From Gammaproteobacteria bacterium (GTDB lineage Bacteria > Pseudomonadota > Gammaproteobacteria > Arenicellales > Poriferihabitantaceae): 64,000 bases of DNA. Numbering within the stretch: position 1 is the stretch's first letter; each line of letters starts with the position of its first letter. Of the stretch, positions 15,597 to 50,047 are shown piece by piece. The notes beneath the pieces were generated by a model, which did not search any database, was not told where the DNA came from, and saw only the letters and a program-made list of their open reading frames with translations. Both the position numbers and the translations under genes were made by a program. The stretch covers positions 167 to 64,166 of the forward strand of contig JAUVBY010000001.1 of NCBI GenBank assembly GCA_030590945.1. Direction: 5' to 3'.

Positions 15597-15654
15597 TGAT
15601 GCTGGGTCTACCCATAGGCTTTATTTTATAACCACAATACAGAGGAGAAAACCA

Positions 15655-16650: not shown

Positions 16651-16685
16651 AACTAAGCCCGGAACCTAACCTCCTTCAGTGCCTG

Positions 16686-19684: not shown

Positions 19685-19831
19685 ATGTATCGCTCACAAT
19701 TGGATGGAATTTGTCAGTGTGGCAGGTCCCGCATGTAAAGCATTTCAGGCATGCTGATGATCTGGTATGCCGAATAAAAGCTGGCTGGTACTATGGTGCC
19801 GAAAGGCATATCTATAAGCTCGGTTCCCGGT

Positions 19832-19851
19832 TTATTCTGCATGCAGAATAA
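19832..19851. promoter_or_regulatory. Perfect 20-bp palindrome upstream of xsc (candidate operator)
   Basis: TTATTCTGCA|TGCAGAATAA sits in the 290-bp spacer between the ligase gene and xsc, about 125 nt upstream of the xsc ATG. Confidence 0.35.
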
Positions 19852-19974
19852 TTATGACCTGGAATTCAAGTTCAACGAGTTGGGGTTTGCTCGGCCAAAA
19901 GCCCGAGCAGTAATGCATTTTGTTTGTACCCGCTCAGGTTTAATTATATACAACTTAGTTTTGGAGAAGTAACC

Positions 19975-25878: not shown

Positions 25879-27228
25879 ATGAAAACAGGTATTCTTGCGC
25901 CACTTATATGCTTTGTCGTATCGCTCACTGCATACGCCCAGGTGCAGCCGCTCTCAGAAGAGGGTAAGTTGCTATTGGAATCAGCCAATAAGGAAATTCA
26001 GAATATTGATACAGAACAACTGCAGCAGCAAATTTTAGATCAGCCCGATACCGTGCTTATTGATGTGCGTACTGCGGAAGAGATCAAACAGGTAGGGACG
26101 ATTGGTTTATATCAGAACATAAACATTCCACGTGGCTGGATTGAGTTTCGTATCGCCGATTCCGCCCGGGCTAAAGACAGGCCAATTGTGGTTTATTGCG
26201 GTATCAATGCGCGCAGTCCCATGGCTGCGAAAACCTTGATGGAGATGGGTTACAGCGACGTCAAAAATTACGCGTCCGGTTATTTTGAATGGAAAAGCCA
26301 GGGTCTTGATGTCAATCTGAGCGATATGGATACCAGTTCGATACTCTATCGCCGGCCCGAAGAAGTAATTGAGGGTGTGTATTCGGCTATTGGCGCTACC
26401 CAGCCGGCAACCTATGAAAACTCGGGGCACAATAACAATCTGTCGTTTGTTATTGCCGAAGATGCGGTGGTGGTATTCAATGCCGGGGGCAGCTACCTGC
26501 TGGCTGAATCCATGCACGAAGAAATCAAAAAGCTAACCTCATTGCCGGTCAAATATGTGGTGCTGGAGAACGCCCAGGGTCATGCCATATTGGGCGCAAA
26601 TTACTGGAAAGCGCAGGGCGCAGAAATCATTGCACATGAGCATACGGCCGAAATCATCGCCGAAGAATTGAGCGCGGTGGTTGTCGTGGAAGGTGAACCC
26701 GGGATTTATGAGCGCGCCGCAATGGTCTTGAACGACAAGCTTTTTAAGTCTCAAATCATCATGCCGGATCGCACCTTTAAAGACAAATTGAGCCTGTCGC
26801 TTAAGGGACGCACCATTGAATTGCTGCACCTTGGTCCTTCCCATAGCCCGGATGATATTCAACTCTGGCTGCCGGAAGATGGCCTGTTGATTTCAGGTGA
26901 TTTCACCTTTAACGAGCGCCTGTTACCCATACTGGATCATACCGATATCCGCGGCTGGATAGAAAGCTGGGACAAACTCGATGAACTCAATCCAAAAATC
27001 ATTATCCCCGGGCACGGAGGCGTCACGGACCTCGAAACCGTCCGGTATTTCACCAAAGACTACCTGGTCTATATGCTCGATCAGATCGTAACACTGGTAG
27101 ACGAAGGCGGTGATTTATTTGACGCTTACGAAATTGATCAATCGGCCTTTCGTCAATGGAAAACGTTTCGAGAGCTGTCGATACAAAATACGGACCGATT
27201 GTTCAGACAGCTTGAGTTTGAGTTTTGA
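25879..27228 (+). CDS. Periplasmic rhodanese-domain / MBL-fold fusion protein
   Basis: 449 aa with a signal peptide (..LTAYA|QV). The rhodanese module has the active-site loop VVYCGINARS. The C-terminal MBL-like fold carries a variant metal motif (LGPSHSPDD ... PGHGG). Confidence 0.65.
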   Translation: MKTGILAPLICFVVSLTAYAQVQPLSEEGKLLLESANKEIQNIDTEQLQQQILDQPDTVLIDVRTAEEIKQVGTIGLYQNINIPRGWIEFRIADSARAKDRPIVVYCGINARSPMAAKTLMEMGYSDVKNYASGYFEWKSQGLDVNLSDMDTSSILYRRPEEVIEGVYSAIGATQPATYENSGHNNNLSFVIAEDAVVVFNAGGSYLLAESMHEEIKKLTSLPVKYVVLENAQGHAILGANYWKAQGAEIIAHEHTAEIIAEELSAVVVVEGEPGIYERAAMVLNDKLFKSQIIMPDRTFKDKLSLSLKGRTIELLHLGPSHSPDDIQLWLPEDGLLISGDFTFNERLLPILDHTDIRGWIESWDKLDELNPKIIIPGHGGVTDLETVRYFTKDYLVYMLDQIVTLVDEGGDLFDAYEIDQSAFRQWKTFRELSIQNTDRLFRQLEFEF

Positions 27229-27314
27229 TCTGGTCGGTTTGTTTGATTTCAGAGCACTCGTATTTAGCGATATATTGCAGTTAATCTGGTGGTTCCTGAT
27301 GGCTTATTGTTCGC

Positions 27315-29177
27315 TTAGGCTGATGCCCGGGCGGGTACTGCAGCGTTAAAGTTCGCTTTGTCTGCGATTAACTTATGTACCGCCTCGACTGCCAGTGGTG
27401 CATTCTCGCCGTATCCATCTGCTTTAATGACCTCTGCAAATTCTTCGGTAACCGGTGCTCCCCCAACAATCACAGGAAACTTCGAACCCACTTTCTTAAA
27501 CAGGTCAACCGTCTTTTGCATCGATGGCATCGAAGTAGTCAGCAAGGCAGAAAGTCCCACTACATCCGGGTTGATCTCGTTGGCACGCTCCAGGATTTCT
27601 TCCGGTTTTTTATTGACGCCCAGATCGATAACTTCGTAACCTGCACCTTCGAGCATCATGCCCACCAGGTTTTTTCCGATGTCGTGGACATCGCCCTGAA
27701 CCGTAGCAAGCATGATAGTGCCTTTTACCGGTTCTCCGGTTTCGGTCAAAATCGGGCGAACCACTTCCAACCCTGCTTTCATTGCGCGTGCGGACATCAG
27801 CATTTCAGGCACAAAGATCGTGCCATCGGCAAAATCATCGCCTATTTCATCCATGGCAGCGATCAAGGCATCGTTGAGGATGGTATGAACGTTAATGTCT
27901 TTTTCGAGGGCTTCTTTGACCAATGCCTCTGTATCGACATCATCTGCGTCCATGACGGCGTCGAAGATATCATCCAGCATTAACTCTTCCGGAGTGTCCG
28001 GGCTGTCGCTGACCGTTACGGGCTTAGCGGCCTTGGTCTTGGTGGCTTTTTTGCCGGTTTCTCCGCGAGCCTCGGGGGTGCCAGCGTTTGGTTGGCCCGC
28101 CCAGGGGCGATCACCGGCCCGAAAATTCTTGCAGGCCTCGATGGCAATGCGCACGTTTTGTGCGGGTGTAACGGCTGAAAGTGAACATAGGTAAAGTGCT
28201 CCTTTGCCGACCGTTTCAATCGCTTCCATGTATTCATGAATACGCATGCGAATTTCTTTTTCTGTCCCGTTTTGAAAAACATTATTGTCGACCCCCAGGA
28301 CGATCGGTATATTGTGTTCCCTGCCGTAGTCGATAACGGGCTGTACTCCCAGTTTATAAAGATCAGGATCTTGCACCTTAAGATAGTCTGGCGTTGCGCG
28401 GCGTTTCTGCGCCCAGAATTCTGGTAGATCAGGCGCATAGGAATCCCCCCACCAATTGTCACAAAAGGCCGGTCGTGTCACTTGCTTTTGCAATCGCTCG
28501 AGGGGTTGCAAGGCAAATTCCTCGAGCATGCCCTGAGTGATGAATGGTAGGGAAGCGACGGCATCAGAGCCTTCGACCGCAACAATATCCGGAAACTCTT
28601 TGATCAATGCATTCATGTAAGGTGCGATGACCTCGTCAACCAGAAAATTCATCAGCTTATGTACGAAACCGGGGTTTTGTTTGATTTGCACAATGAGGTT
28701 TTCAAAGGTCATGACGTGCGAAGCCAGCGTGAAAGGCGCGCAGAAACAGGGGGCTGGTATCATGCCGGCCTGGGCTTTCATTTCGTGCATGATCTCAAAC
28801 ACCATTGGCATGCGCCCTGAGGAATATGGGTCGGGTGCTTTTAATGTCGCGATGTCGGCTTCACAGGCGACTAGAGGTGAAACATTTTCAATGGCAGGCG
28901 CCATGTCTTCGAAGGTGACAAAGCTACAGCCCAGGGCCTGTGCTTCAACATTGTATACGTCCCAGACAAATGAAGGGCTATCAAAATCGAAGCGCTCACA
29001 TACCTCAAGCGTACCGCGTACGAATTTTTTCGCGTCGGTATAAAACTGGTCCCCCGGAATGCCGCTTTCGCGCATTGCGAATTCGTGCATTTGAGCAATG
29101 AACGGAACCTCTGTCGTGCCGCTGGTCATGGCGTCACCTAAGAGTTTGATGTTTTTAGAGAAATCGAATTTTGCCAC
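27315..29177 (-). CDS. Fusion of a URO-D-like (MtaA/CmuA-family) methyltransferase domain and a cobalamin-binding (corrinoid) domain
   Basis: 620 aa. About 370 aa at the N-terminus form a URO-D-like fold, followed by a Lys/Thr/Ala/Pro-rich linker and a B12-binding cap. A Rossmann-like B12 domain follows, with DxHxxG (GDVHDIGKN), SxL (GLSALLTT) and GG (VIVGGAPV). Confidence 0.8.
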   Translation of the reverse strand: MAKFDFSKNIKLLGDAMTSGTTEVPFIAQMHEFAMRESGIPGDQFYTDAKKFVRGTLEVCERFDFDSPSFVWDVYNVEAQALGCSFVTFEDMAPAIENVSPLVACEADIATLKAPDPYSSGRMPMVFEIMHEMKAQAGMIPAPCFCAPFTLASHVMTFENLIVQIKQNPGFVHKLMNFLVDEVIAPYMNALIKEFPDIVAVEGSDAVASLPFITQGMLEEFALQPLERLQKQVTRPAFCDNWWGDSYAPDLPEFWAQKRRATPDYLKVQDPDLYKLGVQPVIDYGREHNIPIVLGVDNNVFQNGTEKEIRMRIHEYMEAIETVGKGALYLCSLSAVTPAQNVRIAIEACKNFRAGDRPWAGQPNAGTPEARGETGKKATKTKAAKPVTVSDSPDTPEELMLDDIFDAVMDADDVDTEALVKEALEKDINVHTILNDALIAAMDEIGDDFADGTIFVPEMLMSARAMKAGLEVVRPILTETGEPVKGTIMLATVQGDVHDIGKNLVGMMLEGAGYEVIDLGVNKKPEEILERANEINPDVVGLSALLTTSMPSMQKTVDLFKKVGSKFPVIVGGAPVTEEFAEVIKADGYGENAPLAVEAVHKLIADKANFNAAVPARASA

Positions 29178-29281
29178 GTCTAGAAAACCCCCGCCTAAAG
29201 TTGAATGGATTCAAGCGAGCCTGATTCCGTTGAAAAATTACGTTTAGAAATCAAATGTAATGATATGATTGGATCATAGAA

Positions 29282-29313
29282 ATACCCATTTATTCGAAAA
29301 TGGTATACCCAAT
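29282..29313. promoter_or_regulatory. Direct repeat ATACCCA(T/A)T x2, a candidate MocR operator
   Basis: ATACCCAT at 29282-29289 and ATACCCAAT at 29305-29313 are spaced 23 bp start to start. They lie in the 159-bp divergent spacer between the corrinoid-fusion gene and the MocR gene. Confidence 0.3.
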
Positions 29314-29336
29314 TGACAATCTGAGGGGGTGAGAGC

Positions 29337-30839
29337 GTGGTAAAGAAAACGGGTGGTGCGTTATTTTCGACGCTTAACATTAATGTATCAAGCGACACGC
29401 CATTGTACAGGCAGCTGGAGACGAAACTTCGCCGGCTCATTCTGGATGGTGAGCTGGTCGCAAAAACAAGGATGCCAGCGACTCGCCAATTGGCAGCGGA
29501 TCTGGGCATATCACGCCTGACGGTTAAAAACGTTTACGAGCAGTTGATTGCCGAAGGATTTTTGTGCGCAAAACAGGGGTCGGGAACTTACGTTGAACCA
29601 GTGCAGAGTAGTGAATTGCACTCCGGGGTTGTCGCCAGGAAACAGCGCAAAGTTTCGCCAATCGCTGCTTTATCACCTCGCACGGTATCGATAGGAGCGT
29701 CTAAAGCGACTACACGGCTTGACCGGGTGCGTGCATTTCGCCCCGGCATTCCGGCCCTGGATCTGTTTCCTCGTCGCGCCTGGCTGGATGCCTGCTCACG
29801 AGTGTTGCGGACCAGCAGCGATGATTTTCTGGGTTACGGCCCCTCCAGTGGGCTTGAAGATTTGAAGCAGGCGATTGCAGAACATGTGCTCGATCACCGC
29901 GGCATTAAATGCTCGAGCAAACAGATTATTATTACTTCAGGCGCGCAACAGGCTTTTTCATTAATTGCGATAACGCTATTGGAGGCCGAAGATGTCGTCT
30001 GGATGGAAGACCCGGGGCATATTGCTATACGCGATTCGATGCGTTTGCTGGGGATCAACGTTCGATCTGTGCCGATTGATGATGAAGGCTTTTCTATTGA
30101 TGATGCTATCAGGCATCATCCGCCAGGCAGTGCATTGTTTACCACGCCATCTCACCAGCATCCCCTGGGTGTGGTGATGAGTTTACAGCGCCGCCTCAGC
30201 CTGCTTGATTACGCCAGCCAAACTGGAAGCTGGATCGTGGAAGATGATTATGACAGTGAGTTTCACTACACCGACAGAGCCTTGCCTGCCCTGCAGGCGC
30301 TGGATAATGACGGCCGTGTATTGTATGTCGGCAGTTTTTCTAAATCCCTGTTTCCAGCCCTGCGCCTGGGGTACCTGATTTGCCCGCTCGGGCTTGCTCA
30401 GTCTTTTGCAGCGGCTCAGACTTTATTGTCGCAGAACGTGTCTTTGCTTCAGCAAAAGGCGCTGGCCAATTTTATGCTCGATGGTAATTTTAATGCGCAC
30501 ATTCGCAAGATGCGAGTGGCCTACCGCCGGCGAAGAGACAAACTAATCCTGACCCTTGAACAGCATGCATCGGATCTGTTTGAGCAGGAACCCTGCCATG
30601 CAGGAATGCACCTGGTCGCCTGGATAAAAGCATCAGGGGTATCCGATAGTGAAGTGGCTGAATGTGTCTGGGCCACAGGCGTCGATTGCCTGCCGCTGTC
30701 TATATTTTGCGACACGCAACGGTTGCGGCCAGGATTAATACTCGGATTTGCCTGTGCGGTAGATGAGAAAATTGAACCTTATGTGATTCGTCTGGCAGAA
30801 GCGGTTCGGCACTTTCTGACTGATCAGGCCGTTAGCTGA
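29337..30839 (+). CDS. MocR-subfamily GntR regulator (wHTH + PLP-aminotransferase-like domain)
   Basis: 500 aa with a GTG start. The N-terminal wHTH reads PLYRQLETKLRRLILDGELVAKTRMPATRQLAADLGISRLTVKNVYEQLIAEGFL. A fold-type-I aminotransferase-like domain follows (SFSKSLFPALRLGY). Confidence 0.85.
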   Translation: MVKKTGGALFSTLNINVSSDTPLYRQLETKLRRLILDGELVAKTRMPATRQLAADLGISRLTVKNVYEQLIAEGFLCAKQGSGTYVEPVQSSELHSGVVARKQRKVSPIAALSPRTVSIGASKATTRLDRVRAFRPGIPALDLFPRRAWLDACSRVLRTSSDDFLGYGPSSGLEDLKQAIAEHVLDHRGIKCSSKQIIITSGAQQAFSLIAITLLEAEDVVWMEDPGHIAIRDSMRLLGINVRSVPIDDEGFSIDDAIRHHPPGSALFTTPSHQHPLGVVMSLQRRLSLLDYASQTGSWIVEDDYDSEFHYTDRALPALQALDNDGRVLYVGSFSKSLFPALRLGYLICPLGLAQSFAAAQTLLSQNVSLLQQKALANFMLDGNFNAHIRKMRVAYRRRRDKLILTLEQHASDLFEQEPCHAGMHLVAWIKASGVSDSEVAECVWATGVDCLPLSIFCDTQRLRPGLILGFACAVDEKIEPYVIRLAEAVRHFLTDQAVS

Positions 30840-30865
30840 TCAGCGCTATCGGTGTTTAACCTGAA

Positions 30866-31096
30866 TTCCTCAGTTGGACAGGGTATAGGGCGCTTGTGTG
30901 GTGGCGTATGGCAAGGCGTACCTGCGCGGAATGGTCATTCCCTTTCAAGCAGTTACAACGCGGCCATACGCCACCACAGGAGTGCAATATACTCTGTAGC
31001 GCCTTAAACCCATAGAGTGAAAAGGATGAAATACAATTCCCTAATGAATTCATGTGCTTATTCATATCTCGTAGCGGTCAACTGAGGATTTTAGGT
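30866..31096 (+). repeat. Copy A of a roughly 230-bp structured repeat (unclassified; ncRNA or non-autonomous mobile element)
   Basis: It is about 90% identical to 57431..57660 over the first roughly 150 nt and over the last roughly 25 nt. Its termini are complementary (CCTCAGTTG / CAACTGAGG). It carries a perfect 16-bp long-range helix (30897-30912 with 30963-30978) and nested hairpins. The strand shown is arbitrary. Confidence 0.7.
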
Positions 31097-33544
31097 TTAA
31101 GCATCGGTTCTTGAGCGAATCGATTCCGGGTCCCAGACCGGGTTGTTTATTACCAGGGCGCGGTATTGTTTGCCCAGTAACTCGACGAATAATTGCGTTC
31201 CGGCTTGCGCATATTTTGCTGCGACATACGCAAAACCGAGGCTTTTTCGGGTGGTATGGCCATAACCACCTGAGGTTGTGACGCCCACGGGGTTTCCATC
31301 GGCAAACACCGGTTCACCCCCGGCGATATCGCAGTCACTGGAATCCACTTCCAGGTAAACTATTTGTTCAGCAATACTATTTTCGAGCACGTTTAACGTA
31401 GCCTCTTTACCAGTAAAGTGATCTTTTTTATCTGCAAAAAATCGCATCAGGTCAGCTTCCACCATGGTGATTTCGTTGGTTAGTTCACTGCCCCAGCCTT
31501 TGTAGGCTTTCTCCATGCGCATCGAGTTGACCGCGTAGGTACCAAAGTTGGTGATATTAAACTCCTGTCCGGCAGCCCACAGCGCATCGTAAACATGCAG
31601 CAGATCCGCCATTGGTACGTGTAGTTCCCAACCCAGTTCTCCGACATAATTGACCCGCAGGGCGCGTACCTGGCAGCCTGCTACGGTTATTTCCTTGCCC
31701 GTCAGCCAACGAAAATTCAGGTTATCCAGCCCGGCACCCGTCAATTTACTGAGTACATTGCGTGAGTGTGGTCCCGCCAGTACCAGCACACCATAATCGT
31801 CGCTTACATTTTTAAGCTGTACGTCTTCACCATCCAGAATGCCTTGTTTAAGTGTATCGAAATCCCGGTCTTCAGCGACTGCGCCGGACAGGACGTAATA
31901 TTGTTCTTCATTTAAGCGAGTGATGGTCGATTCGCCGCTGATACGGCCGGTTGGAGATAGATAGTGTGTCAAACAGATCCCACCATTGCGCGACGATATA
32001 GTGTTAGCGCTTATCCGGTTGAGCAGCGACCGCGCATCTTTGCCGGCCACATCATACTTGGCAAAGCTAGACAGATCCAGCAGGCCAACTCGCTCCCGCA
32101 CCGCCTTACATTCATCGCCTATGACGTCAAAGATGTTGTTGTGCCGAAAGCCTGCCTGTTCCTGCCTGCCATCAGGGGAAAACCATTTAGGCCGCTCCCA
32201 GCCATTGGCCTCAGTGTAGACGCATCCCTGTTCCAACAGGCGATCATATAGAGGTGTGATTCTTGCCTTACGTGCGGCAGGGCGTTCCTCGCCGGGCAGA
32301 TGTAAGGCATACATGTGTTCGTAGTCCTGATGTGATCTGCTTTTGGTAAAGCAGCCGGGTGCAAATCGGCCAAAGCGTCGCGGGTCGACCCCCGCCATGT
32401 TGATTTCGGCATCACCGTAAATCATCCATTGCGCGAGATACTTACCGGAGCCCGCGCCCGCCGCAATGCCAATCGAAGCACCATTGCAATGCCAGAAATT
32501 GCGTAATCCGGCAGCCGGACCCAGACAGGGGTTCCCGTCTGGCGTATGTGGAATGGCACCGCAGACCACGCGTTTGATGCTCAGATCTTCCCACATGGGT
32601 ATGCGTTGCATGACGCGTTCGATAAAGGGCAGTAGATTATCGAAATCAGGGTTGAACAGTTCGTTTTCAGATTTCCACTCCGGCCAGCCATCCCGGTGAG
32701 TCCAGCATTCTTCTGAGTTGGCGGTTTCGTATATCCCGATCAGGGCAGATTTTTGTTCCTGACGATAATACGCGGAGGGGTAGGGATCTCGCATGACCGG
32801 CATTTCTTCATCGCATTCCAGAAATTCGGGCACAGATTCTGTGACGACGTAAGTATGTTTCATATTGGTGATGGGGGAATCCGTACCCACCATCTGGCTG
32901 ACCTGTCGAGCGTAGCATCCCGCGGCATTCACCACCATCTCGCAATGAATATTTCCCTCTTCTGTAACGATCTCCCAGTCACCGGATTTTTTCTGATTGA
33001 TATCAATGACCCGGTTTCCGGTAATGATTTTGGCACCTAAGTTCCTTGCTCCTATAGCCATCGCCTGGGTAATACCCGCTGGATCAACGTGCCCGTCATT
33101 GATCGTCCAGGCACCCGCAATCACCCCGTCGGTATTTACATGCGGGTTAAGCTGGCGTATTTTGGCCGGGTCAATGATCTCGCAGTCAAACCCAATCAGT
33201 TTGCCCACACTGGCAACGCGGTGAAACCAGTCTACTTCGGATTGCTTAAGCGCAAAACGGATACCCCCGCAGCCATGCCAGCTGACATACTGACCGGTTA
33301 GTTCCTCGAGTTTGGGGTATAGTTGGATGCCGTGGTCGTGTATCTTCGCCATATTGTAATCAGCGATAAAACTGGGGCATTGCCCGGCCGCATGCCAGGT
33401 TGAGCCCGATGTGAGTTCACCTTTTTCGATCAACAGAATATCTGTCCAGCCCTCCAGTGCGAGATGGTATAACAGGCTAACGCCCATGACGCCACCGCCT
33501 ACGATGACTACTTTGGCCTGCGAAGGGAGGGCAGTATCACTCAT
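31097..33544 (-). CDS. FAD-dependent oxidoreductase + GcvT-like domain (dimethylglycine dehydrogenase-like), second paralogue
   Basis: 815 aa with VIVGGGVMGVSLLYHLA, STWHAAG, and a C-terminal aminomethyltransferase-like domain (YVGELGWELHVP). Its ATG overlaps the MttB-like gene stop (ATGA). Confidence 0.85.
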   Translation of the reverse strand: MSDTALPSQAKVVIVGGGVMGVSLLYHLALEGWTDILLIEKGELTSGSTWHAAGQCPSFIADYNMAKIHDHGIQLYPKLEELTGQYVSWHGCGGIRFALKQSEVDWFHRVASVGKLIGFDCEIIDPAKIRQLNPHVNTDGVIAGAWTINDGHVDPAGITQAMAIGARNLGAKIITGNRVIDINQKKSGDWEIVTEEGNIHCEMVVNAAGCYARQVSQMVGTDSPITNMKHTYVVTESVPEFLECDEEMPVMRDPYPSAYYRQEQKSALIGIYETANSEECWTHRDGWPEWKSENELFNPDFDNLLPFIERVMQRIPMWEDLSIKRVVCGAIPHTPDGNPCLGPAAGLRNFWHCNGASIGIAAGAGSGKYLAQWMIYGDAEINMAGVDPRRFGRFAPGCFTKSRSHQDYEHMYALHLPGEERPAARKARITPLYDRLLEQGCVYTEANGWERPKWFSPDGRQEQAGFRHNNIFDVIGDECKAVRERVGLLDLSSFAKYDVAGKDARSLLNRISANTISSRNGGICLTHYLSPTGRISGESTITRLNEEQYYVLSGAVAEDRDFDTLKQGILDGEDVQLKNVSDDYGVLVLAGPHSRNVLSKLTGAGLDNLNFRWLTGKEITVAGCQVRALRVNYVGELGWELHVPMADLLHVYDALWAAGQEFNITNFGTYAVNSMRMEKAYKGWGSELTNEITMVEADLMRFFADKKDHFTGKEATLNVLENSIAEQIVYLEVDSSDCDIAGGEPVFADGNPVGVTTSGGYGHTTRKSLGFAYVAAKYAQAGTQLFVELLGKQYRALVINNPVWDPESIRSRTDA

Positions 33545-35112
33545 GGTTTCATTTGTTCGCGGGGCAGGCGAATATCAAAGTTGGCGCGAAGGCGGGCATC
33601 GAGTTTTTCGCTGATATGTTGCGGAAAATGGCTGGCCAGAATTTCCCGGGTTTTTACTCTGGCTGGCACGTTTATCGGTTGAGAACCCATTTCCTTCCAA
33701 AGGTCTGGCGGAAATCGATTACCCACCTCCGGGTAAACGTAATCTTTTAACATTCTTGATAAGGTGGATTCATGCGAGAGAAAATGCTCGGGACCATTGA
33801 GGCAAACATCTTCGATAGTTTTGAGCGCCAGCGTGTCGTCGTCAATTTCAATGCCACGTACGCTGCGATTAATGGCGCCAAGCATATCATTGTCCAGCGT
33901 GCAACCTTCAAAGCTGAAGCCCAGCAGGCTCGCTTGCATGCCTGCCGCTTCATAGACCATATTGGCACCGCTGTGCCCGGCCAGAGCGAGGGTATAACCC
34001 TTCTCAAAGCCTGACTGCGCATCTGGAATTTTGGAATCGGCCATGCCGGCTGCGATGCCGGTCGGTAAATCATAATAACGTCCCATCTGGCCACAGGCCG
34101 CCATTAATATAGCCTGCTCTCCGCTACCACCACTCATGGCGCCGGTTCTCAAATCAGAGACGAATGGCCAGGGGCCGGCAACACAAGGGTGGCCGGGGAC
34201 CATGCTATTTACATAGGCCAGTGCGCCCAGCACTTCGGCCATTTCCTGAACAACTGCACCGGCGAGTGTGGCCGGACTGGTTGCCCCGGCCTGCCCGGCA
34301 GCAAGTAACAGTACGGGCATGCCACCATGCACTACAACCTCTAATACACGACAGGCATCTTCAGCAAATCGCAGGGGGGGGACCACAAAGCAGGACGACA
34401 TGCTAACAAACGGTCGCTCGCGCCATTTTTTTTCACTGCCCGCGATTTCGTGTAACATTTTGAGTGTTTGCTGTGCGTGTTCGGGTTCGACATAACTTAC
34501 CCCGACATGCTTCGTGGTACCTGATACCGAAGCGTAGGTAGTATTGAGATCCATCGCAGCGGGTTGCACAATATCTCTTGCCACCAGAGGGCGTTGAAAA
34601 AAGTGAATGTGATCCAGGCTGTCAACTAACCGTGCCGCGTCGTACAAATCCTGAATGGTCGAATCACGATAGGCACTCGCGTTTGGATAATCAGCATGGG
34701 TTTTCCAGTCATCGACAATATGCACGGCCGCGCCTGCGGTTCCAAAGTAGACTTTATTTCCACTCAAATGCAGGTCGTGTTTTTCTTCCTGGCCGTATAA
34801 GGTAATATTTCTTGCGGCAATATCGAGTGTTTTTAAAATTAGATCGCGCGGAAAGAGTAAACGGCCATCATCTGTATATTTTCCACCGGCCGCGGTCACT
34901 GTTTTAATACACGAGGGAATTACGCGGGAAAAGCCGACGTTCTCCAGCAAATCCAGAATGGCTTCATGGATGCGCTGCATATCTGCTTCAGTCAGAGGAT
35001 GAAAACGCCCCCCCGACTGGCCCGGATGAACGGCTTTATCTTCTTCGGCCAGTGGTGCTGCACGCAATGCACGACGGGCGACCCTACCGCCTGCTCTTTT
35101 AGATGCCATCAA
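33541..35112 (-). CDS. MttB-superfamily methyltransferase, non-pyrrolysine type (quaternary amine:corrinoid methyltransferase candidate)
   Basis: 523 aa with an uninterrupted frame and no in-frame TAG. The Arg-rich N-terminus is followed by ..PLTEADMQRIHEAILDLLENVGF.., with TIM-barrel-like MttB family resemblance throughout (recall). Confidence 0.75.
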   Translation of the reverse strand: MMASKRAGGRVARRALRAAPLAEEDKAVHPGQSGGRFHPLTEADMQRIHEAILDLLENVGFSRVIPSCIKTVTAAGGKYTDDGRLLFPRDLILKTLDIAARNITLYGQEEKHDLHLSGNKVYFGTAGAAVHIVDDWKTHADYPNASAYRDSTIQDLYDAARLVDSLDHIHFFQRPLVARDIVQPAAMDLNTTYASVSGTTKHVGVSYVEPEHAQQTLKMLHEIAGSEKKWRERPFVSMSSCFVVPPLRFAEDACRVLEVVVHGGMPVLLLAAGQAGATSPATLAGAVVQEMAEVLGALAYVNSMVPGHPCVAGPWPFVSDLRTGAMSGGSGEQAILMAACGQMGRYYDLPTGIAAGMADSKIPDAQSGFEKGYTLALAGHSGANMVYEAAGMQASLLGFSFEGCTLDNDMLGAINRSVRGIEIDDDTLALKTIEDVCLNGPEHFLSHESTLSRMLKDYVYPEVGNRFPPDLWKEMGSQPINVPARVKTREILASHFPQHISEKLDARLRANFDIRLPREQMKP

Positions 35113-35193
35113 TATTCATGATCCGTTTGTATAAAGAGCAGTATCTATTAATTTCTTTACGTGAGATTTAGTATTAGCGACGTGAAGTTAAGT

Positions 35194-35700
35194 TTACGCG
35201 GCGCCCTTGCTGCGAGCGAGCCCAGGCGAATGTCCGTACCGCGATTGGTAACAGGTGCAGAAATGGCTCGATGATTTAAACCCGCAGGCTAGCGCGGCCT
35301 CAATTATCTTTAGGTTGCTGTTTTGCAACAATTCATGTGCGGCATCGAGACGCAGTCCCAGGTAGTATCGGCCGGGCGTTATTTTAAGGTGGCGTTGAAA
35401 TAACCGTTCCATCTGACGTTTTGAGCTATGTATTAACCTGGCCAGTTCGTCCGGCATCAGAGGTTCTTCGATATTAGCCTCCATCAGCTCAACGCATTCC
35501 AGCAGTGCTGAGTGATTTGTGCCGATACGCGATTGTAAATTCATTCGCTGTGGTTCATGCGGTGTTCGTATTTGGGAGTGAATCATGCTGTCCGCAACCG
35601 AAGCTGCCAGTTCATGACCATGTTGTTGTTCAATCAGATACAGCATCATATCCATAGAAGCACTGCCCCCTGCACAGGTAATACGATTGCCCCTCTTTAG
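35194..35700 (-). pseudogene. 5'-truncated GlxA/GbdR/CdhR-type AraC regulator (only the tail of the DJ-1/GATase1-like domain plus the HTH domain remain)
   Basis: The frame opens just after a TGA at 35701-35703, only 12 nt from the betA stop. It reads LKRGNRITCAGGSASMDMMLYLIEQQHGHELAASVA.., which is the end of a GATase1-like domain, followed by a complete AraC HTH (..SSHFCTCYQSRYGHSP). About 170 N-terminal residues expected for the family are absent. A 153-aa product from the ATG at 35655 remains possible. Confidence 0.6.
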
Positions 35701-35715
35701 TCAATTGAATATAGT

Positions 35716-37380
35716 CTAGCGCTGGCAACTTTGATAATCCAGGTGATACCAGACCGGAACTTTTGTGGCAGGCAGGGGGGGCTTACCGAGAATCAGGTCA
35801 GCCGCTTTTTCTGCCACCATTATGGTCGGGGCATTGAGGTTGCCATTAGTGATGCTGGGAAAAATTGAAGAATCCACCACGCGTAAGGCGTCGATTCCAC
35901 GAACCCGACATTCACTGTCAAGCACGGCCATAACATCTTCGTCTGCCCCCATTTTGCAGGTGCACGAAGGGTGGTAGGCACTTTCTACGTTTTGTCTCAC
36001 CCAGGCATCAATGTCGTCATCGCTTTCGATATTTTCCCCCGGCTGAATCTCACCATTGTCAAAGGCCTGAAATGCGCTTTGTGACAGGATCTCGCGGGTC
36101 AGGCGAATGCAGGCCCGCCAGTCTTCGATGTCCTGCTGACTTGATAGATAGTTGAATTTTATTTCCGGGTGATCGTTTGGATTTGAAGAGTGAATACGTA
36201 CGTGTCCCCGACTGCCTGGTGTATTGGGTCCGACGTGGACCTGATAACCATGTCCTTTTACCGCCGCCTGCCCGTCATAGCGCATGGCTGCGGGCAGAAA
36301 ATGATATTGAATGTTCGGGGCTTTGAGGCCCGCACGAGAGCGAATAAAAGCGCACGATTCAAAATGATTGGTAGCCCCTAAGCCCGATTTAAATAACAGC
36401 CATTGTGCGCCGATCAGCGCTTTACTGAACAAACCCAGCTTGCTGTTGAGGGTGACGGGTTTTTTACATTGTATCTGAAAGTACACTTCCAGGTGATCCT
36501 GCAAATTTTCGCCTACCCCGGGTAGCTCCTTACGCACCTCAATGCCGGCTGCTTCCAGCACCGAACGCGGGCCGATACCCGATAGTTGCAGAAGCTGAGG
36601 AGACCCGATTGACCCTGCTGACAGGATAACTTCTTTAGTTGCTGTCGCTTGCTTAATTTTACCTTCGTGTTGAAACTCAATACCAGTAGCAGTATTTCCT
36701 TTGAACAAAATTTGTCGGCTGTGTACGTCCGTTTTCAGGTTTAGATTGGGCCGCTTTAGCGCAAGCCTGAGATGCGCAGAACTGGTGTTGGCGCGCACTC
36801 CGTCCTTGACGGTCATATGCATCGGACCAAAGCCTTCCTGCTGATAGCCGTTATAATCCTCAGTGAGAGGGTAACCTGCCTGGTGTCCGGCATGAATAAA
36901 GGCCTGGTAAAGCGGGTTGAGTTTCATGTGATTACCATTGCAGGTACCCACCGGGCCACTACCACCACGATACACATCTTCTCCGCCTTCCCAGGTTTCC
37001 GATTTTTTAAAGTAGGGCAGGCAGTCCTCATAGCTCCAGCCTTTTGCTCCCTGAGCTTCCCATTGATCAAAATCATCCGCATGGCCACGCACGTATACCA
37101 TACCATTTATGGATGAACTGCCCCCCAGCACTTTTCCGCGAGGGCAATGCAATGATCGATTGTTAATGCCCGGCTCGGGCTGGCTGTAAAACTGCCAGGT
37201 GAAACGGTCCATGTTCATCGGGTAGGACAAAGCCGTCGGCATACGGATGAGAATGTGCTTATCCGAGCCTCCTTTTTCGAGCAGCAATACGCTGTGTTCA
37301 CCGCTTTCGGTCAGGCGATTCGCAAGGATGCAACCCGCTGAGCCCGCACCGACGATGATGTAGTCATATTGTTCAGACAT
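35716..37380 (-). CDS. betA: Choline dehydrogenase (GMC oxidoreductase)
   Basis: 554 aa. The N-terminus is [24 protein letters not shown] signatures are present, and the ORF shows full-length BetA-like sequence. It is adjacent to betB. Confidence 0.9.
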
Positions 37381-37391
37381 AACCGCATGAA

Positions 37392-37512
37392 CCTCCCCCT
37401 TTAATAAAGGGGGATAGAGGGGGATTTGCGCGAAGTTGGTAATCTGTATTCAATTTTATTAATTAGATAAACCTGCAAATCTCCCCCAACCCCTCTTTGT
37501 TAAAGAGGGGAG
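37392..37512 (-). mobile_element. MITE-like element X (inverted orientation relative to 53714..53831)
   Basis: Its reverse complement shares both roughly 37-bp termini with element Y, with 1-2 mismatches each (CTCCCCTCTTTAACAAAGAGGGGTTGGGGGAGATTTG ... CAAATCCCCCTCTATCCCCCTTTATTAAAGGGGGAGG). The cores are unrelated. Each terminus contains a hairpin. The element sits 11 nt upstream of the betA ATG. Confidence 0.75.
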
Positions 37513-37559
37513 CTTAACAGCTAGTTCATGATTCAAGAGGTAACCCGCTGCGACAGTCA

Positions 37560-39017
37560 TCAATATGGCCGCTCCATCGGTTCCAACTGCACGTAAACAC
37601 TCTTGGTTTGCGTGTATTTGTACAAAGTCTGAATACCATTCTCGCGCCCAATGCCCGATTCTTTGTAACCCCCAACCGGCATTTCGGCGGGCGATGCCCC
37701 CCAGGCGTTGATCCAGCAAATGCCCGATTCCAATTCGGCGATAACCCGGTGCGCGCGGCTGATATCGCGCGTAAAGACGCCCGCTGCAAGGCCATATTTA
37801 GTGTCATTGGCTCGTTTTAGAACCTCAGTTTCATCACTGAAGCGTAACACCGCCATCACCGGGCCGAAGATTTCATCTCTTACATTTGGCATGTCATCGT
37901 GGCAGTCTATAAATACGGTAGGCTGCACGAACGCACCTCTATCAAGGCCATGATCCAGTACGCGTTTTCCACCGCACAACAGGCGTGCCCCGGCCGCTTT
38001 CGCTGCATCGATATAACCTAGCACTTTTTCCATATGTGCCTGCGAAATCAGAGCGCCGACCTGCGTATTAATATCCAGCGGGTCACCGATGATCATCGCT
38101 TCGGTGCGGATTTTTAATTCAGCACAAAATTCGTCGTAGAGTGCGTCCTGTACGAATACCCGGGTGCCGTTCGTACACACTTCGCCCTGAGTATAAAAAT
38201 TGGCCAGCATTGCAGCAGAAACTGCGCTATCGAGGGGTGTATCATCAAAAATAATCAGCGCGGATTTTCCGCCCAGTTCGACGGTTACTTCCTTGAGGTT
38301 TACTGAGGCAGCAGCCATTACTTTTTTACCGGTTTCACACTCTCCGGTAAACGAGATTTTAGCAATGCCCGGGTGTGCAGTCAGCATCTGCCCGACGAGC
38401 GCATCGCCCTGCACAATATTAAATACACCGTCCGGAACGCCTGCTTCGGTATATATCTCAGCGAGTTTTAATGCTGTTAAAGGTGTTTCTTCAGAGGGTT
38501 TAAATACCATAGCGTTACCCGCCGCCAGTGCAGGGGCCGATTTCCACATCGCGATTTGCATAGGATAGTTCCAGGCACCAATGCCGGCGCATACGCCCAA
38601 TGGTTCCTGGCGCGTATAGAAAAAATCACCATTACCCAGGTCCTGGTAGCTGCCTTCAATTTTTCCAGCCAGGCCAGCATAATATTCGATTACGTCGGCG
38701 CCGGTCTGGATATCCACGCAGTTGGCTTCCTGCAAAGGCTTGCCGGTGTCCCTGACTTCAAGTTCAGCCAGTTCATCATTGCGATCACGCAAAAGTTCTA
38801 CAGCCCTGCCCAGGATACGACCACGTTCCGCGCCCGGCATTGCAGCCCAGATTTTCTGTCCCCGATGGGCAGATTCAACCGCCATATCGACATCTGCCTG
38901 TGAAGCGAGTTGTACCTCGGCCAGGATCTCCCCGGTGGCGGGATTGGTACTGCGAAAAATCTCGCCTGAAGTGGCATTGACATTCCTGCCATTGATATAC
39001 AGCTTCACGTTTATCAT
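37560..39017 (-). CDS. betB: Betaine aldehyde dehydrogenase
   Basis: 485 aa ALDH-superfamily protein with VELGGKSA and the catalytic region [10 protein letters not shown]. It is BetB-like across its full length and sits immediately upstream of betA. Confidence 0.9.
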
Positions 39018-39190
39018 AAATTAATTAGGGGTGCCCATGTGTCCAGGCAGGAACAGGGTTTGATTGCTTCATTTGCTTGCAGACGCGAGGCCAATTCCGA
39101 AAAGTACAAACATGCTGCCACCAGCACGCCGGGTCCCGGGCTCAATATGGTTGCCGTTGCGATCACTATAAATAGAAGATATGGTTCCAT
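39014..39190 (-). pseudogene. 58-codon remnant resembling the N-terminus of a LysE/RhtB-family exporter
   Basis: My own translation is MEPYLLFIVIATATILSPGPGVLVAACLYF.., which carries the LysE-type SPGP motif, followed by unrelated sequence. Its TGA overlaps the betB ATG (ATGA). It is below the ORF-track length cut-off. Confidence 0.3.
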
Positions 39191-39464
39191 TTTATTTTGA
39201 GCCCTGGTGTTGCCTTGATGTCACGGACAAAAGATTCTATCACCGTAAGCATGGCGAGAAAAGTGTGGTTGCAGTTATGGTGACACCGTATGCGGTATAC
39301 ACAACCAAAAAACCGGGTGGACTGTTCTATGTATTTAAAACGCTTTTACCGGGTGATTTCCCTTTTGACGACGAATGGGCACACCGGGCCTGCCGCGCGG
39401 ACATGAATACATTTTGAAGGGGTTGCACTTTTCGCGCCTCTGGCCCCGCTGCAACGTTAGTTCG

Positions 39465-41222
39465 TTACACGAATAAAACATAACCCCCAACCACGATTAG
39501 CCCAATTCTTAATAAAATGGCTTTGGGTGCGATTATGCCAAAAGAAATCATTGCCAGCGCGATTGCCATTTTTACGCCGCTTATTAATGCTGGTATCGCT
39601 GCGCTCTCCAGCTCTATGAGCGTCGGATTGGCAATCATACCCAGGGGGATCAAATAAAGGCCAATGCCCAATGCCATGGCTGTGCCCGCCACTTTTAGCC
39701 AGTTTTCTTCCACCATGCCGGCGGCGATAAACACCGCACCGCACACCGGGGGGGTAATGGTGCTCAACAGGGCGAACCAGAAAATAAACAGGTGCGCTTG
39801 CAAGGGGGCTAATCCCAGATTAATTAACGCCGGGCCTGCAACCGAAACACAGATCACGTAGGCCGCAGTGGTGGGTACTTCCATCCCCAGAATCAGGCAG
39901 GCGAATGCGGTCAGTAGCAGTGCCGGCCATAGCTGGCCGCCCGAACCGGATAGTATCAGCGAAGTAATTTTTACGCCCAGGCCGGTAATGCCCAATACCC
40001 CGATAATGATTGAGGCGCACAGGATGATTGAGGCAATAGTGGCAATCTGCAAACCGCTGTTGATGCAGACGGTTTTCAGCCGCATCAGACTACGTTCTGT
40101 ATCAAAGCTAAACTGGCTGTCAACCAATAATAGAACTGCGCCTGCAATGATTGCCAGACTGGCGGCATATTGTGGCGTCAAACCGGCTACGAACATCCCC
40201 CAGAGCAATACTGAGAACGGCAACAGGAAAAAACCGGAGGTGACCAGTACATCCCGTAATCCGGGTTGTTGATCTGAAGGTATGGCCTTGAGATCATATC
40301 GCCCGGCATAAGCATCAATGCCAACCCAGACCGCGAAAAAATAAAGCAGGGCGGGTAGCAGTGCTGCCATCATAATGCTGGTATAGGGAACGCCGGTAAG
40401 CTCTACCATCACAAAGGCGCCTGCCCCCATTAGTGGCGGCATAATCTGGCCTCCTGAAGAAGCGACTGCCTCTACCGCCCCGGCCAGCGACCGGGGATAA
40501 CCCAGCCGCGTCATAGCGGGCAGTGTAATCGCGCCCGTCGAAGCGACGTTGGCAGAAGCAGAGCCCGAAATGGAACCAAACAGCGCAGATGAAATGACCG
40601 ATACTTTTGCGGCACCGCCGCGTAATCGTCCTGCCGCTGCCGCCGCTACATTCATAAACCCCTGTCCGGCTTCACCGCCATTCAGAACGGCGCCAAAGAT
40701 CACGAAAATAGCCACGATACTGACGGAAATACCGGTTAGCTTTCCCCATATCCCACCTTCAGCAATAGTTAGTGTTCCGAGGAAACTCGCGATGGGTGTG
40801 CCCGGGTGGCCGAATTCGCCCGGGATATACTGCCCCCACAAGCCATACGCCAACGCGATGAGTGCGACCAGCGGCAGAGGCCAGCTGATGGCGCGCCGTG
40901 CCATCTCCAGGGTGATTAACAACAGCGCAATTGCAATTACATGCTGATAAGCGTCTGCCAGATATCCATACTGGTCGCCCAGCATAGACTGATTGAAGAC
41001 GATCCAGAGGCAGGCCGCCAGCCCGGTAATGCACAGCAGAATTCCGGTCAGATACTGCGTTCGAGTTGTCGCGATATATATCAGCACCCAGGGCAAGGCC
41101 AGGGCCATGTGCAGAGGCCGGCTGACCAGGTTGGGAACCAGGCCGGAGAAAATCAGCCAGAGGTGGAACACGATTGAGATAAGGCCAAGTAGTGGCCAGC
41201 CCCATCGTGAAAACTGAATCAT
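39465..41222 (-). CDS. TRAP transporter fused permease (TAXI-type)
   Basis: 585 aa polytopic membrane protein, immediately downstream of a TAXI-family binding protein gene. Confidence 0.8.
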   Translation of the reverse strand: MIQFSRWGWPLLGLISIVFHLWLIFSGLVPNLVSRPLHMALALPWVLIYIATTRTQYLTGILLCITGLAACLWIVFNQSMLGDQYGYLADAYQHVIAIALLLITLEMARRAISWPLPLVALIALAYGLWGQYIPGEFGHPGTPIASFLGTLTIAEGGIWGKLTGISVSIVAIFVIFGAVLNGGEAGQGFMNVAAAAAGRLRGGAAKVSVISSALFGSISGSASANVASTGAITLPAMTRLGYPRSLAGAVEAVASSGGQIMPPLMGAGAFVMVELTGVPYTSIMMAALLPALLYFFAVWVGIDAYAGRYDLKAIPSDQQPGLRDVLVTSGFFLLPFSVLLWGMFVAGLTPQYAASLAIIAGAVLLLVDSQFSFDTERSLMRLKTVCINSGLQIATIASIILCASIIIGVLGITGLGVKITSLILSGSGGQLWPALLLTAFACLILGMEVPTTAAYVICVSVAGPALINLGLAPLQAHLFIFWFALLSTITPPVCGAVFIAAGMVEENWLKVAGTAMALGIGLYLIPLGMIANPTLIELESAAIPALISGVKMAIALAMISFGIIAPKAILLRIGLIVVGGYVLFV

Positions 41223-41283
41223 TGTGAAATGGCCAACGGCCGGACTTGCACTGCCTGAGTGATGTCCGACCGCGCGACGGGTT

Positions 41284-42237
41284 TTACATTTGATCTGCTG
41301 TTAAGCTAAATCCCGCTTCTTGGTAATACTTCGCAGCGCCTGGATGAATCTTCCCTTTGATATTCACCATCAGGTCTTTATCAACCGCGTTCCACCAGGC
41401 AGCGGCTTCGCCCATACTTGCCTTTTGAGACCAGTAGGTTTTAGTCAGTGCGTAAGCGGTATCGTCATCCATCTGGGTGGTTGTGTAAGCCACCACGGGT
41501 AAAGACGTGGTTGTAATGTCTTCGCTCTGCCCCGCGTAGGTGCCTGCAGGTATGATCAGACGAGTACGCTTGCTCGCTGTGATTTGCTCGTCATTCAGCG
41601 ATAGCACGCGGACGCCGGTTCCGGCAGCTGCCTCGATTACGTTCGGAGCCGGATAGGATCCGGCGGTGACAAAACCATCGATCTGACCATTTTTAAGTGC
41701 TGGCCCGGCATTTGAAAGCTCAACTTCGGCCAGTGTTACCTTGCCTTCAAGACCGAACAGCTTAAGGTATTTTGCGCCTTCTTTGGCGCCGAAAGAGCCT
41801 TTGCCCAGCAGTATTGTCTTGCCTTCCAGCCCTGCAAAATCAGTTACGCCGCTTTTCTCGCTCATGACAAAATGCATGGTCAGAGAAGGAATAGGGAACA
41901 AAGCTCGAATATCTGCAAATTTTGGGTTTTGCTTGTCCTTGAACATGGCTTTACCGGCCTTTGCAAGCTTCACCAATACCGGGGGTGTGGTAAACACATA
42001 GTTTCCAGGTCGAACTGCGGACTCCATGACGTTTTGCACCGAGCCCTGGCTTTCCTCTACCGTCACGATGATACCGCCTGATGAACCTGCCTTCATGGCC
42101 TCGGCAATTTGTACCGCCATTTGATAGTAGGATGAGGTGGTTTTGGCTGATTTATACGTCACGCGTGTTTCAGCAGAACTCGTATTGACCATCAACAAGC
42201 CGATAGTTATCAACCCAATTAGTTTAAATCGTTTCAT
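41284..42237 (-). CDS. TAXI-family TRAP transporter solute-binding protein
   Basis: 317 aa with a signal peptide (..NTSSA|ET). Its TAXI/immunogenic-protein-like sequence includes a C-terminal ..IHPGAAKYYQEAG. Confidence 0.8.
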   Translation of the reverse strand: MKRFKLIGLITIGLLMVNTSSAETRVTYKSAKTTSSYYQMAVQIAEAMKAGSSGGIIVTVEESQGSVQNVMESAVRPGNYVFTTPPVLVKLAKAGKAMFKDKQNPKFADIRALFPIPSLTMHFVMSEKSGVTDFAGLEGKTILLGKGSFGAKEGAKYLKLFGLEGKVTLAEVELSNAGPALKNGQIDGFVTAGSYPAPNVIEAAAGTGVRVLSLNDEQITASKRTRLIIPAGTYAGQSEDITTTSLPVVAYTTTQMDDDTAYALTKTYWSQKASMGEAAAWWNAVDKDLMVNIKGKIHPGAAKYYQEAGFSLTADQM

Positions 42238-42367
42238 TTTTACTCCTCTGGAACAAATAGTTTTAAGTGTTGTTTAAGCTGTTGCTAAATTTAGCGGTGC
42301 TAGTATTACACATACTGAGCAGCCTTGCGCTGGTTGTGCGCTTGCGTAGCACTCTTTTTCAAGAGCC

Positions 42368-48107: not shown

Positions 48108-48109
48108 GC

Positions 48110-50034: not shown

Positions 50035-50047
50035 GATTGTTCCTCGT

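Follow-up and report, generated by a model that had tools for sequence, protein, structure and literature searches.

The cobalamin-dependent demethylation of glycine betaine in aerobic marine bacteria was described by Mausz et al. (2025, PNAS; PMC12478193). Ruegeria pomeroyi needs the corrinoid protein MtgC and the pterin methyltransferase MtgD both to demethylate betaine and to synthesise methionine, and growth on betaine, choline or carnitine induces two MttB-family proteins, MtgB1 (SPO2108) and MtgB2 (SPO2134), along with cobalamin synthesis proteins, RamA and DUF1638 (PMC12478193). The evidence for this aerobic pathway is genetic and proteomic, and in marine Alpha-, Gamma- and Deltaproteobacteria the mtgBCD genes lie beside genes for dimethylglycine and sarcosine demethylation (PMC12478193). 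We analysed a stretch of 64,000 nt (the window; GCA_030590945.1, contig JAUVBY010000001.1, positions 167-64,166, nearly all of its 67-kb contig; coordinates below are window positions) that holds a gene for a non-pyrrolysine member of the MttB methyltransferase superfamily (mttB), linked to a gene for a dimethylglycine dehydrogenase (DMGDH)-type flavoenzyme (dmgdh), and, close by, a gene for a fusion of a uroporphyrinogen decarboxylase (URO-D)-like domain with a cobalamin-binding domain. A first-pass annotation of this DNA had joined these genes in one betaine demethylation system and held that it was not a described pathway; aerobic B12-dependent betaine demethylation encoded near the downstream genes was published in 2025 (PMC12478193), so that the window is a further example of a pathway concept that is already known.

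The window shares with the aerobic MtgBCD(E) system of R. pomeroyi and S. meliloti a non-pyrrolysine MttB-family gene in an aerobe, linked to dimethylglycine-type demethylation genes; the clade of its MttB is found elsewhere in operons with MtgC, DUF1638, MtgD and RamA homologues, and marine Gammaproteobacteria have already been reported as hosts (PMC12478193). It differs from that system in that stand-alone MtgC, MtgD, RamA and MetF2 are missing (no MtgC, MtgD, RamA, DUF1638 or MetF homologue was found within the 64-kb window, and no cobalamin riboswitch reached the Rfam gathering score there) and in that its MttB is only 23% identical to S. meliloti MtgB. The characterised members from anaerobes, D. 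hafniense MtgB (PDB 2qne/9yce), E. limosum MtpB, MtcB, MtyB and MthB, have the same superfamily and fold as the window MttB and no pyrrolysine, and the transfer of a methyl group from a quaternary amine to a Co(I)-corrinoid that they carry out would be expected, by analogy, of the window protein too. The latter is equally distant from D. hafniense MtgB (178 bits) and from pyrrolysine-type MttB (183 bits); unlike the anaerobes' proteins, it comes from an aerobic/microaerobic proteobacterium, and its coupling is to a flavin DMGDH, not to a pathway of acetogenesis or methanogenesis. A literature search on the R. pomeroyi megaplasmid MttB cluster, SPO2108/SPO2134, SAR11 MttB and URO-D/corrinoid fusions returned only Mausz et al. 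(2025) and papers on anaerobes.

On the minus strand, the genes follow in the direction of transcription as TAXI-TRAP binding protein, fused permease, betB, betA, an AraC-type open reading frame (ORF), mttB and dmgdh (Table 1). Beyond dmgdh lies the MocR gene on the plus strand and, divergent from it on the minus strand, the fusion gene; it is separated from the mttB-dmgdh pair, on the dmgdh side, by approximately 2 kb that include the MocR gene. Every domain that the first-pass annotation had named was found again by Pfam and NCBIfam profiles. We consider it fairly probable that this region is a catabolic island of a marine gammaproteobacterium holding two adjacent methyl-transfer modules: module A would consist, with similar probability, of betB-betA-(gbdR remnant)-mttB-dmgdh, and module B of mocR and the fusion gene. 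The TAXI-TRAP genes lie upstream on the same strand as the bet and mttB genes and are only a putative member of that unit. A promoter and terminator scan of 27000-42600 gave sites no more numerous than in shuffled sequence and thus carries no information on transcription units.

Table 1. Features of the bet-mttB-dmgdh and mocR-fusion region (window positions)
Feature	Position	Strand	Domains or evidence
Fusion, 620 aa: URO-D/MtaA-fold barrel (~1-360) + MtgC-type cobalamin-binding domain (~396-612)	27315..29177	-	Pfam, AlphaFold2
Direct repeat ATACCCA(T/A)TT, two copies 23 nt apart	29282..29314	.	mocR-fusion intergenic region
MocR-type regulator	29337..30839	+	Pfam: GntR helix-turn-helix + Aminotran_1_2 (pyridoxal phosphate aminotransferase fold)
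dmgdh, dimethylglycine-dehydrogenase-type flavoenzyme, 815 aa	31097..33544	-	DAO + FAO_M + GCV_T + GCV_T_C
mttB, non-pyrrolysine MttB-superfamily methyltransferase, 522 aa	33541..35109	-	Pfam MTTB
gbdR remnant, 5'-truncated (DJ-1/PfpI + AraC helix-turn-helix)	35194..35694	-	GbdR model positions 177-324 of 365
betA, choline dehydrogenase	35716..37380	-	NF002550 888 bits (cut-off 605); TIGR01810 793 (732)
betB, betaine-aldehyde dehydrogenase	37560..39017	-	NF009725 826 bits (cut-off 593); TIGR01804 679 (669)
TAXI-type TRAP transporter: permease (fused) 39465-41222, binding protein 41284-42237	39465..42237	-	Profile search: TIGR02123 466 bits, TIGR02122 159 bits, both over cut-off

The product of mttB matches the MttB superfamily profile (PF06253) with 347 bits against a cut-off of 25, its residues 6-511 covering profile positions 1-491 of 500, and falls short of the pyrrolysine-type MttB model TIGR02369 (332 bits, cut-off 525). 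In agreement with the amber-free ORF reported by the first-pass annotation, no in-frame TAG occurs in mttB, and Met356 (ATG 34042-34044) aligns with the pyrrolysine position of Methanosarcina MttB (PDB 7xcl). Since the N-terminus MASKRAGGR... is conserved among homologues, the true start is, on the sequence, almost certainly the ATG at 35109, one codon after the TTG listed at 35112, giving 522 aa. The Rfam model PYLIS_3 gives a match within the gene (33945..34044, minus strand; 58.2 bits, gathering score 38). As this match begins precisely at the ATG standing in place of the amber codon, and as amber-free homologues in L081, L082, L085 and L087 give it too, we rejected it as a pyrrolysine insertion element and take it for a coding-homology artefact; the model appears to detect coding homology and not a functional RNA element.

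When the window MttB was compared with PDB entries by phmmer, pyrrolysine-type MttB 7xcl scored 183 bits, D. hafniense MtgB 178 and S. meliloti MtgB (4yyc) 98, while the two MtgB proteins, which served as references for the MtgB clade, score 419 bits against each other. The 23% identity given above is that to the S. meliloti MtgB adjoining MtgC; the window MttB shares 53% identity with another S. meliloti paralogue, whose neighbours are genes for a LysR regulator and a DMGDH-like protein, and 50% with a paralogue on the R. pomeroyi megaplasmid. By these comparisons the window MttB is a member of a clade separate from the MtgB clade, a placement compatible with a betaine methyltransferase function, and glycine betaine as its substrate is argued from context, not from orthology. 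The megaplasmid locus (L086; NC_006569.1, 338765-358219) has a LysR gene followed by genes for the MttB-family protein, a class-III aminotransferase, two DMGDH-like proteins and a thiamine pyrophosphate enzyme, and looks, from its gene content, like a complete route that would strip three methyl groups and the amino group from a trimethylammonio compound other than betaine. The Xsc of the window was tried as a counterpart of that thiamine pyrophosphate enzyme and set aside, the identity being just 30%.

The partner enzyme aligns end to end with rat and human DMGDH (617 bits, E 5e-184; residues 8-812 against residues 43-851 of the rat protein) and scores 302 bits against Arthrobacter dimethylglycine oxidase. 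It has the full four-domain architecture of mammalian and bacterial DMGDH (4pab, 5l46) and of the Arthrobacter oxidase (1pj5), and the S-T-W-H-A-A-G flavin-attachment region is common to it and to characterised DMGDH. What had been called an FAD/GcvT-fold oxidase is, by similarity, a genuine DMGDH-type enzyme with dimethylglycine as its predicted substrate. The mttB stop overlaps the dmgdh start as ATGA at 33541-33544, which the first-pass annotation had read as translational coupling; the same 4-base overlap is present in the relatives L081 and L085, and a 200-bp spacer takes its place in L082 and L083. The window also encodes a second DMGDH-like paralogue (8785-11244, 819 aa), 34% identical to the first and scoring 458 bits against mammalian DMGDH; in this part of the window (8785-12663) its gene is divergent from an alanine dehydrogenase gene, and a GntR/HutC-type regulator gene adjoins.

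Exact-sequence look-ups with the MttB (both possible starts), the DMGDH and P0121, a 604-aa database entry identical over its length to the fusion of the window, returned no record, and the genomic context was therefore taken from homologues. Marine metagenomes and gammaproteobacterial metagenome-assembled genomes (MAGs) contain many MttB homologues (58-93% identity), and we surveyed 85 loci of the clade, 5 obtained via exact-protein look-ups and 80 from a metagenome scan. A DMGDH-like gene was nearby at 29 of them, and of the 53 metagenome-scan loci that leave space for such a gene, 17 have it directly downstream on the same strand. Regulators of the GbdR family were present at 11/85 loci, an adjacent RamA-type corrinoid activase at 7/85, and stand-alone MtgC- and MtgD-like genes at 3/85. 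Two loci, L161 (5503-16506) and L162 (1-9888), have the operon order ramA-dmgdh-mttB(window clade)-mtgB(4yyc type)-mtgC-DUF1638-mtgD; their MtgC and MtgD are 81% and 63% identical to the proteins of S. meliloti, where the reference cluster comprises bmt, mtgB, mtgC, DUF1638, metV, metF, mtgD and an ASKHA activase. The association of the window clade with MtgC, MtgD, RamA and DUF1638 is full at these two loci and partial in L125, L095, L150, L151, L158 and L160. Judged from these sequences, the MttB/DMGDH pair is a real, conserved unit, and the occurrence of its clade in operons with ramA, mtgC and mtgD ties the clade to the aerobic cobalamin machinery; a cobalamin-dependent route from quaternary to tertiary to secondary amine appears well founded.

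The same loci separate the pair from its other neighbours. Neither the N-domain of the fusion nor a MocR gene was found at any of the 85 MttB-clade loci, and none of 18 other loci with a full-length fusion has an MttB gene within 10 kb. The divergent MocR-fusion pairing recurs on its own in L001 (MocR 77% identical), L089, L091 and L172, that is at five loci with the window, and at other loci the fusion has its own methyl-tetrahydrofolate:corrinoid methyltransferase and activase. For these reasons we place the fusion and MocR outside the MttB module and judge it likely, on balance, that two independent methyl-transfer modules adjoin here. Of the cobalamin module proposed by the first-pass annotation, the step from MttB to DMGDH stands, as a pair that is conserved and lies near ramA, mtgC and mtgD elsewhere, and the membership of the fusion and MocR in it falls.

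The MocR gene and the fusion gene are divergent, as the first-pass annotation had them, and 159 bp apart. Their intergenic region holds the direct repeat listed in Table 1, and that of L089 holds the same AATTGGGTAT repeat pair, which makes the repeat a plausible candidate for the MocR operator. Among the other fusion loci, L003 (NF005719 352 bits, cut-off 259), L012 and L014 have a methyl-tetrahydrofolate:corrinoid methyltransferase (MtgD-like) gene directly downstream of the fusion, and L011 has one some 5 kb downstream; an AcsV/RamA-type activase is near the fusion in L011, L012 and L014, a MetF-like gene in L001 and L014, a DMGDH-like oxidase in L001 and L172, an Opp-type ABC importer in L090, L091 and L172, and a sulfatase in L001 and L091. 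The fusion of L001 (295-9053), 86% identical, is the closest relative in the genome-collection scan; there, an MvhD-like gene, MetV, MetF and an HdrC/B-like gene precede the MocR gene, and a choline-sulfatase-like gene lies between MocR and the fusion, neighbours that hint at methyl-tetrahydrofolate oxidation and a sulfated substrate.

The fusion protein itself gives matches to URO-D (residues 24-235), B12-binding and B12-binding_2, the latter two with 107 and 77 bits, and the motifs D496-x-H498-x-x-G501, S543-x-L545 and G572-G573, which the first-pass annotation had pointed out, are invariant in an alignment of 21 homologues. Its GTG start is backed by the conserved N-terminus M-x-x-F-D-F of the homologues. 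An AlphaFold2 model (predicted local distance difference test 83.7) has three parts: a complete barrel of eight strands, a linker (374-393) that is disordered, and a cap followed by a Rossmann B12 domain; the modelled barrel matches the M. mazei MtaA-type methyltransferase 4ay7 (template-modelling score 0.80) and uroporphyrinogen decarboxylases, and the C-terminal half matches MttC, MtaC and the B12 domains of MetH and is 45% identical in sequence to S. meliloti MtgC. The fusion family comprises at least 120 clusters with 58-100% identity and the same three Pfam domains, from gamma- and alphaproteobacterial MAGs. The family of the N-domain is small, with 48 representatives at E<=1e-30 among 1.84 billion sequences, and includes stand-alone forms of 350-400 residues. 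A rhodanese domain fused to a SoxH-related metallo-beta-lactamase-fold protein, with the features of a secreted product, is encoded at 25879-27228 (plus strand), convergent with the fusion gene.

The described protein with the same layout is CmuA of Methylorubrum extorquens CM4, which has an N-terminal URO-D/MtaA-family domain and a C-terminal corrinoid-binding domain; it works with a separate pterin methyltransferase, CmuB, and a pterin methyltransferase likewise follows the fusion gene in some genomes. The MtsD/F/H proteins of Methanosarcina have the same methyltransferase plus corrinoid fusion architecture. The fusion differs from CmuA in its separate N-domain family, its lack of an H-x-C motif, its MtgC-type B12 domain and the MocR gene next door, under whose regulation it would stand. 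As an orthologue of CmuA it was rejected: in tblastn against pCMU01 the similarity to CmuA (27.5%) is limited to residues 331-608, mainly the corrinoid half, and the MtaA/CmuA profiles reach only residues ~29-235, with TIGR01463 (mtaA_cmuA) at 52.7 bits against a cut-off of 235. MtaA/MtbA methylcobamide:thiol methyltransferases typically bind zinc through an H-x-C...C site in the last third of the barrel; no H-x-C motif was found in residues 236-390 of the fusion, which sets it apart from the MtaA/MtbA type. The homologue alignment shows instead the invariant residues C146, C331, H31, H154 and H314 and many acidic residues in the N-domain; those compared with the secondary structure of the model lie at or just past strand ends, and C146, C331, H154 and H314 could form a different, putative metal site. 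The simplest reading of module B is a CmuA-like, self-contained methyltransferase and corrinoid protein with a methyl donor of its own, as far as its sequence and neighbours can tell.

Both bet genes that the first-pass annotation had placed upstream of mttB pass their NCBIfam equivalog cut-offs (Table 1). Between betA and mttB lies a gbdR remnant that the annotation did not mention: it keeps only the C-terminal ~150-160 codons of the regulator, including the 153-codon AraC-type ORF (35194-35655), the DJ-1/PfpI half being gone, and an in-frame stop is found just upstream of it, 60 bp past the betA stop. It scores 173 bits on the GbdR equivalog model, for which a full-length match above 480 bits is required, and shares 71% identity with residues 162-322 of the L081 regulator, which is intact (323 aa). 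Intact 323-residue DJ-1/PfpI + AraC regulators are encoded directly upstream of mttB in L081, L082, L083 and L092 and score 340-343 bits, under the same cut-off of 480, so that they are GbdR-family paralogues and the window copy is a pseudogene. The order betB-betA-mttB-dmgdh is the same in L085 (MttB 93% identical), where the spacer is more decayed; in L084 (MttB 88% identical), mttB follows a hydrogenase large-subunit gene with two short ORFs between, and the genes called within 10 kb of it include no fusion, MocR, DMGDH or bet gene. Given the intact regulator upstream of mttB in relatives and the differing context in L084, the bet-mttB juxtaposition is not a conserved design but a lineage-specific rearrangement in a plastic region, along with which the local GbdR-type regulator lost its N-terminal half. 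The integrated choline-to-betaine operon of the first-pass annotation is in this respect a lineage-specific link with a truncated regulator. In the lineage of the window, mttB-dmgdh may be expressed via read-through from betBA.

In the mechanism that we propose, BetA and BetB would oxidise choline to glycine betaine, and MttB would take a quaternary amine, most probably glycine betaine, as methyl donor and transfer one of its N-methyl groups to a corrinoid protein in the Co(I) state. The tertiary amine product, dimethylglycine, would be oxidatively demethylated by the translationally coupled DMGDH, while the methyl-corrinoid would be unloaded onto tetrahydrofolate by an MtgD-type pterin methyltransferase and a RamA-type activase would keep the corrinoid reduced. 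Module A would in this way follow the aerobic MtgBCD scheme (PMC12478193), with its partner genes lying outside the window. In module B, which MocR would control, the methyl group would come from another donor; the URO-D-fold domain would load it onto the MtgC-type corrinoid domain of the same protein, and from there the group would go to tetrahydrofolate via a pterin methyltransferase. Glycine betaine is a reasonable substrate for the MttB/DMGDH pair because betBA lie upstream in the window and in L085, regulators of the GbdR family accompany the clade and the coupled enzyme is similar to DMGDH.

Several observations weigh against this scheme. The low identity of the window MttB to the MtgB clade leaves betaine as a predicted, not an established, substrate; the clade co-occurs with an MtgB-type gene in L161, L162 and L151; and betA next to this clade is rare (2/85 loci). 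The separation of the two modules is affected by the length of the contigs surveyed, many of which are short (only 37/85 are >=12 kb), so that missing neighbours are weak evidence at those loci. Within the 64-kb window the fusion holds the sole cobalamin-binding domain, and with MtgC, MtgD and RamA missing there its corrinoid domain is a possible partner for MttB.

The first of these points bear on the alternative that the MttB clade acts on a quaternary amine other than betaine, the DMGDH-type enzyme taking the corresponding dimethyl product, which we consider unlikely without dismissing it. It would account for the 23% identity and for the MtgB-type gene that stands alongside in the operon (L161, L162) or at the locus (L151, L158); the 50%-identical paralogue of the R. 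pomeroyi megaplasmid sits in an apparent demethylation/deamination cluster, and the adjacent regulators stay below the GbdR equivalog cut-off (340 vs 480 bits). The coupled enzyme, however, is far nearer to authentic DMGDH (617 bits) than the second paralogue of the window is (458), betBA are directly upstream in the window and in L085, and two different proteins of the MttB family are induced by betaine in R. pomeroyi (PMC12478193), so that two clades in one betaine operon involve no contradiction. The presence of the two clades together could mean different substrates, or it could be the counterpart of the MtgB1 and MtgB2 of Mausz et al.

The position of the fusion as the only B12 domain of the window, some 2 kb from the dmgdh end of the pair, invites the alternative that it is the partner of MttB, which would methylate the corrinoid domain of the fusion while the URO-D domain would act in an MtbA-like manner on an acceptor. 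The MttB-MttC-MtbA relay of methanogens is the template for such an integrated model. The corrinoid domain is of the MtgC type, with its 45% identity to S. meliloti MtgC, and the best structural match of the modelled N-domain is the Methanosarcina MtaA-type methyltransferase. R. pomeroyi MtgC, which is proposed to be methylated by MtgB, has a second essential role in making methionine (PMC12478193), and corrinoid proteins of this type can thus be shared. We nevertheless find this arrangement improbable: the two genes are co-localised at 0/85 MttB loci and 0/18 fusion loci, the MttB clade occurs elsewhere with stand-alone MtgC, MtgD and RamA, the fusion has its own regulator and a predicted single-gene transcription, with the MocR gene between it and dmgdh, and the H-x-C motif is absent from residues 236-390 in a protein that the MtaA/CmuA profiles match only at ~29-235.

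Little credence is given to a biosynthetic, split MetH-like role, in which methyl-tetrahydrofolate would load the corrinoid via an MtgD-type protein and the URO-D/MetE-like barrel would methylate homocysteine or another thiol: the methyl-tetrahydrofolate:corrinoid methyltransferase and activase that follow the fusion in L012 and L014 (methyltransferase alone in L003), the URO-D fold common to MtaA-type thiol methyltransferases, the invariant C146, C331, H31, H154, H314 and acidic residues of the N-domain and the automatic annotation as methionine synthase in several sources would agree with it, but the regulators encoded next to the fusion, MocR or GcvA-like LysR proteins, are those usual for catabolic genes, the MetF/MetV, DMGDH-like, sulfatase and ABC importer neighbours at several loci suit methyl-group oxidation, and the canonical H-x-C...C zinc motif was not found.

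Returning to two separate modules, the neighbours of the fusion (DMGDH-like oxidases, choline-sulfatase-like genes, Opp-type importers, MetF/MetV and pterin methyltransferases) lead us to suggest, tentatively, that it is a new substrate-specific methyltransferase and carrier of aerobic marine Proteobacteria, feeding tetrahydrofolate from a donor new to aerobic cobalamin metabolism, for example a methylated amine, sulfonium or sulfated osmolyte. A bolder version of this proposal would have the fusion serve also as an MtbA-like acceptor for the neighbouring MttB.

Other clusters of the window concern different substrates. A sulfoacetate/sulfoacetaldehyde catabolic cluster with TctA/B/C-type transporter genes occupies 13633-21756 (plus strand) and encodes SauS (739 bits, cut-off 600), a SauT-like AMP-forming coenzyme A ligase and Xsc (903 bits, cut-off 676). 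At 45925-58668 lies a [NiFe] hydrogenase cluster resembling the Isp type, with genes for a membrane protein and an HdrD-like protein between those of the small and large subunits, followed by maturation-type genes (putative hypB, hypD, hypF and hypE, read from translations only); the same kind of hydrogenase cluster is found just upstream of mttB in L084. A putative 2-aminoethylphosphonate ABC transporter binding protein is encoded at 138-1163 (minus strand; PhnS2 equivalog, 480 bits, cut-off 393), and with this gene and the other clusters the window looks like an island for organic nitrogen, sulfur and phosphorus compounds of the osmolyte type.

In the ocean, much carbon, nitrogen and energy changes hands as glycine betaine and related methylated osmolytes, and the finding in 2025 of cobalamin-based demethylation in many aerobes widened the known demand for vitamin B12. 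The window adds a gammaproteobacterial case of a true DMGDH strung together with choline oxidation and an MttB-family step, evidence from ramA, mtgC and mtgD operons that an MttB clade distinct from MtgB shares the same cobalamin machinery, and a widespread CmuA-like fusion family that is yet to be characterised. The current understanding is not overturned, and what the window offers are mainly candidates for biochemical assignment. The remaining interest lies in the substrate of this MttB clade and in the fusion family, which probably marks another B12-dependent demethylation in aerobes.

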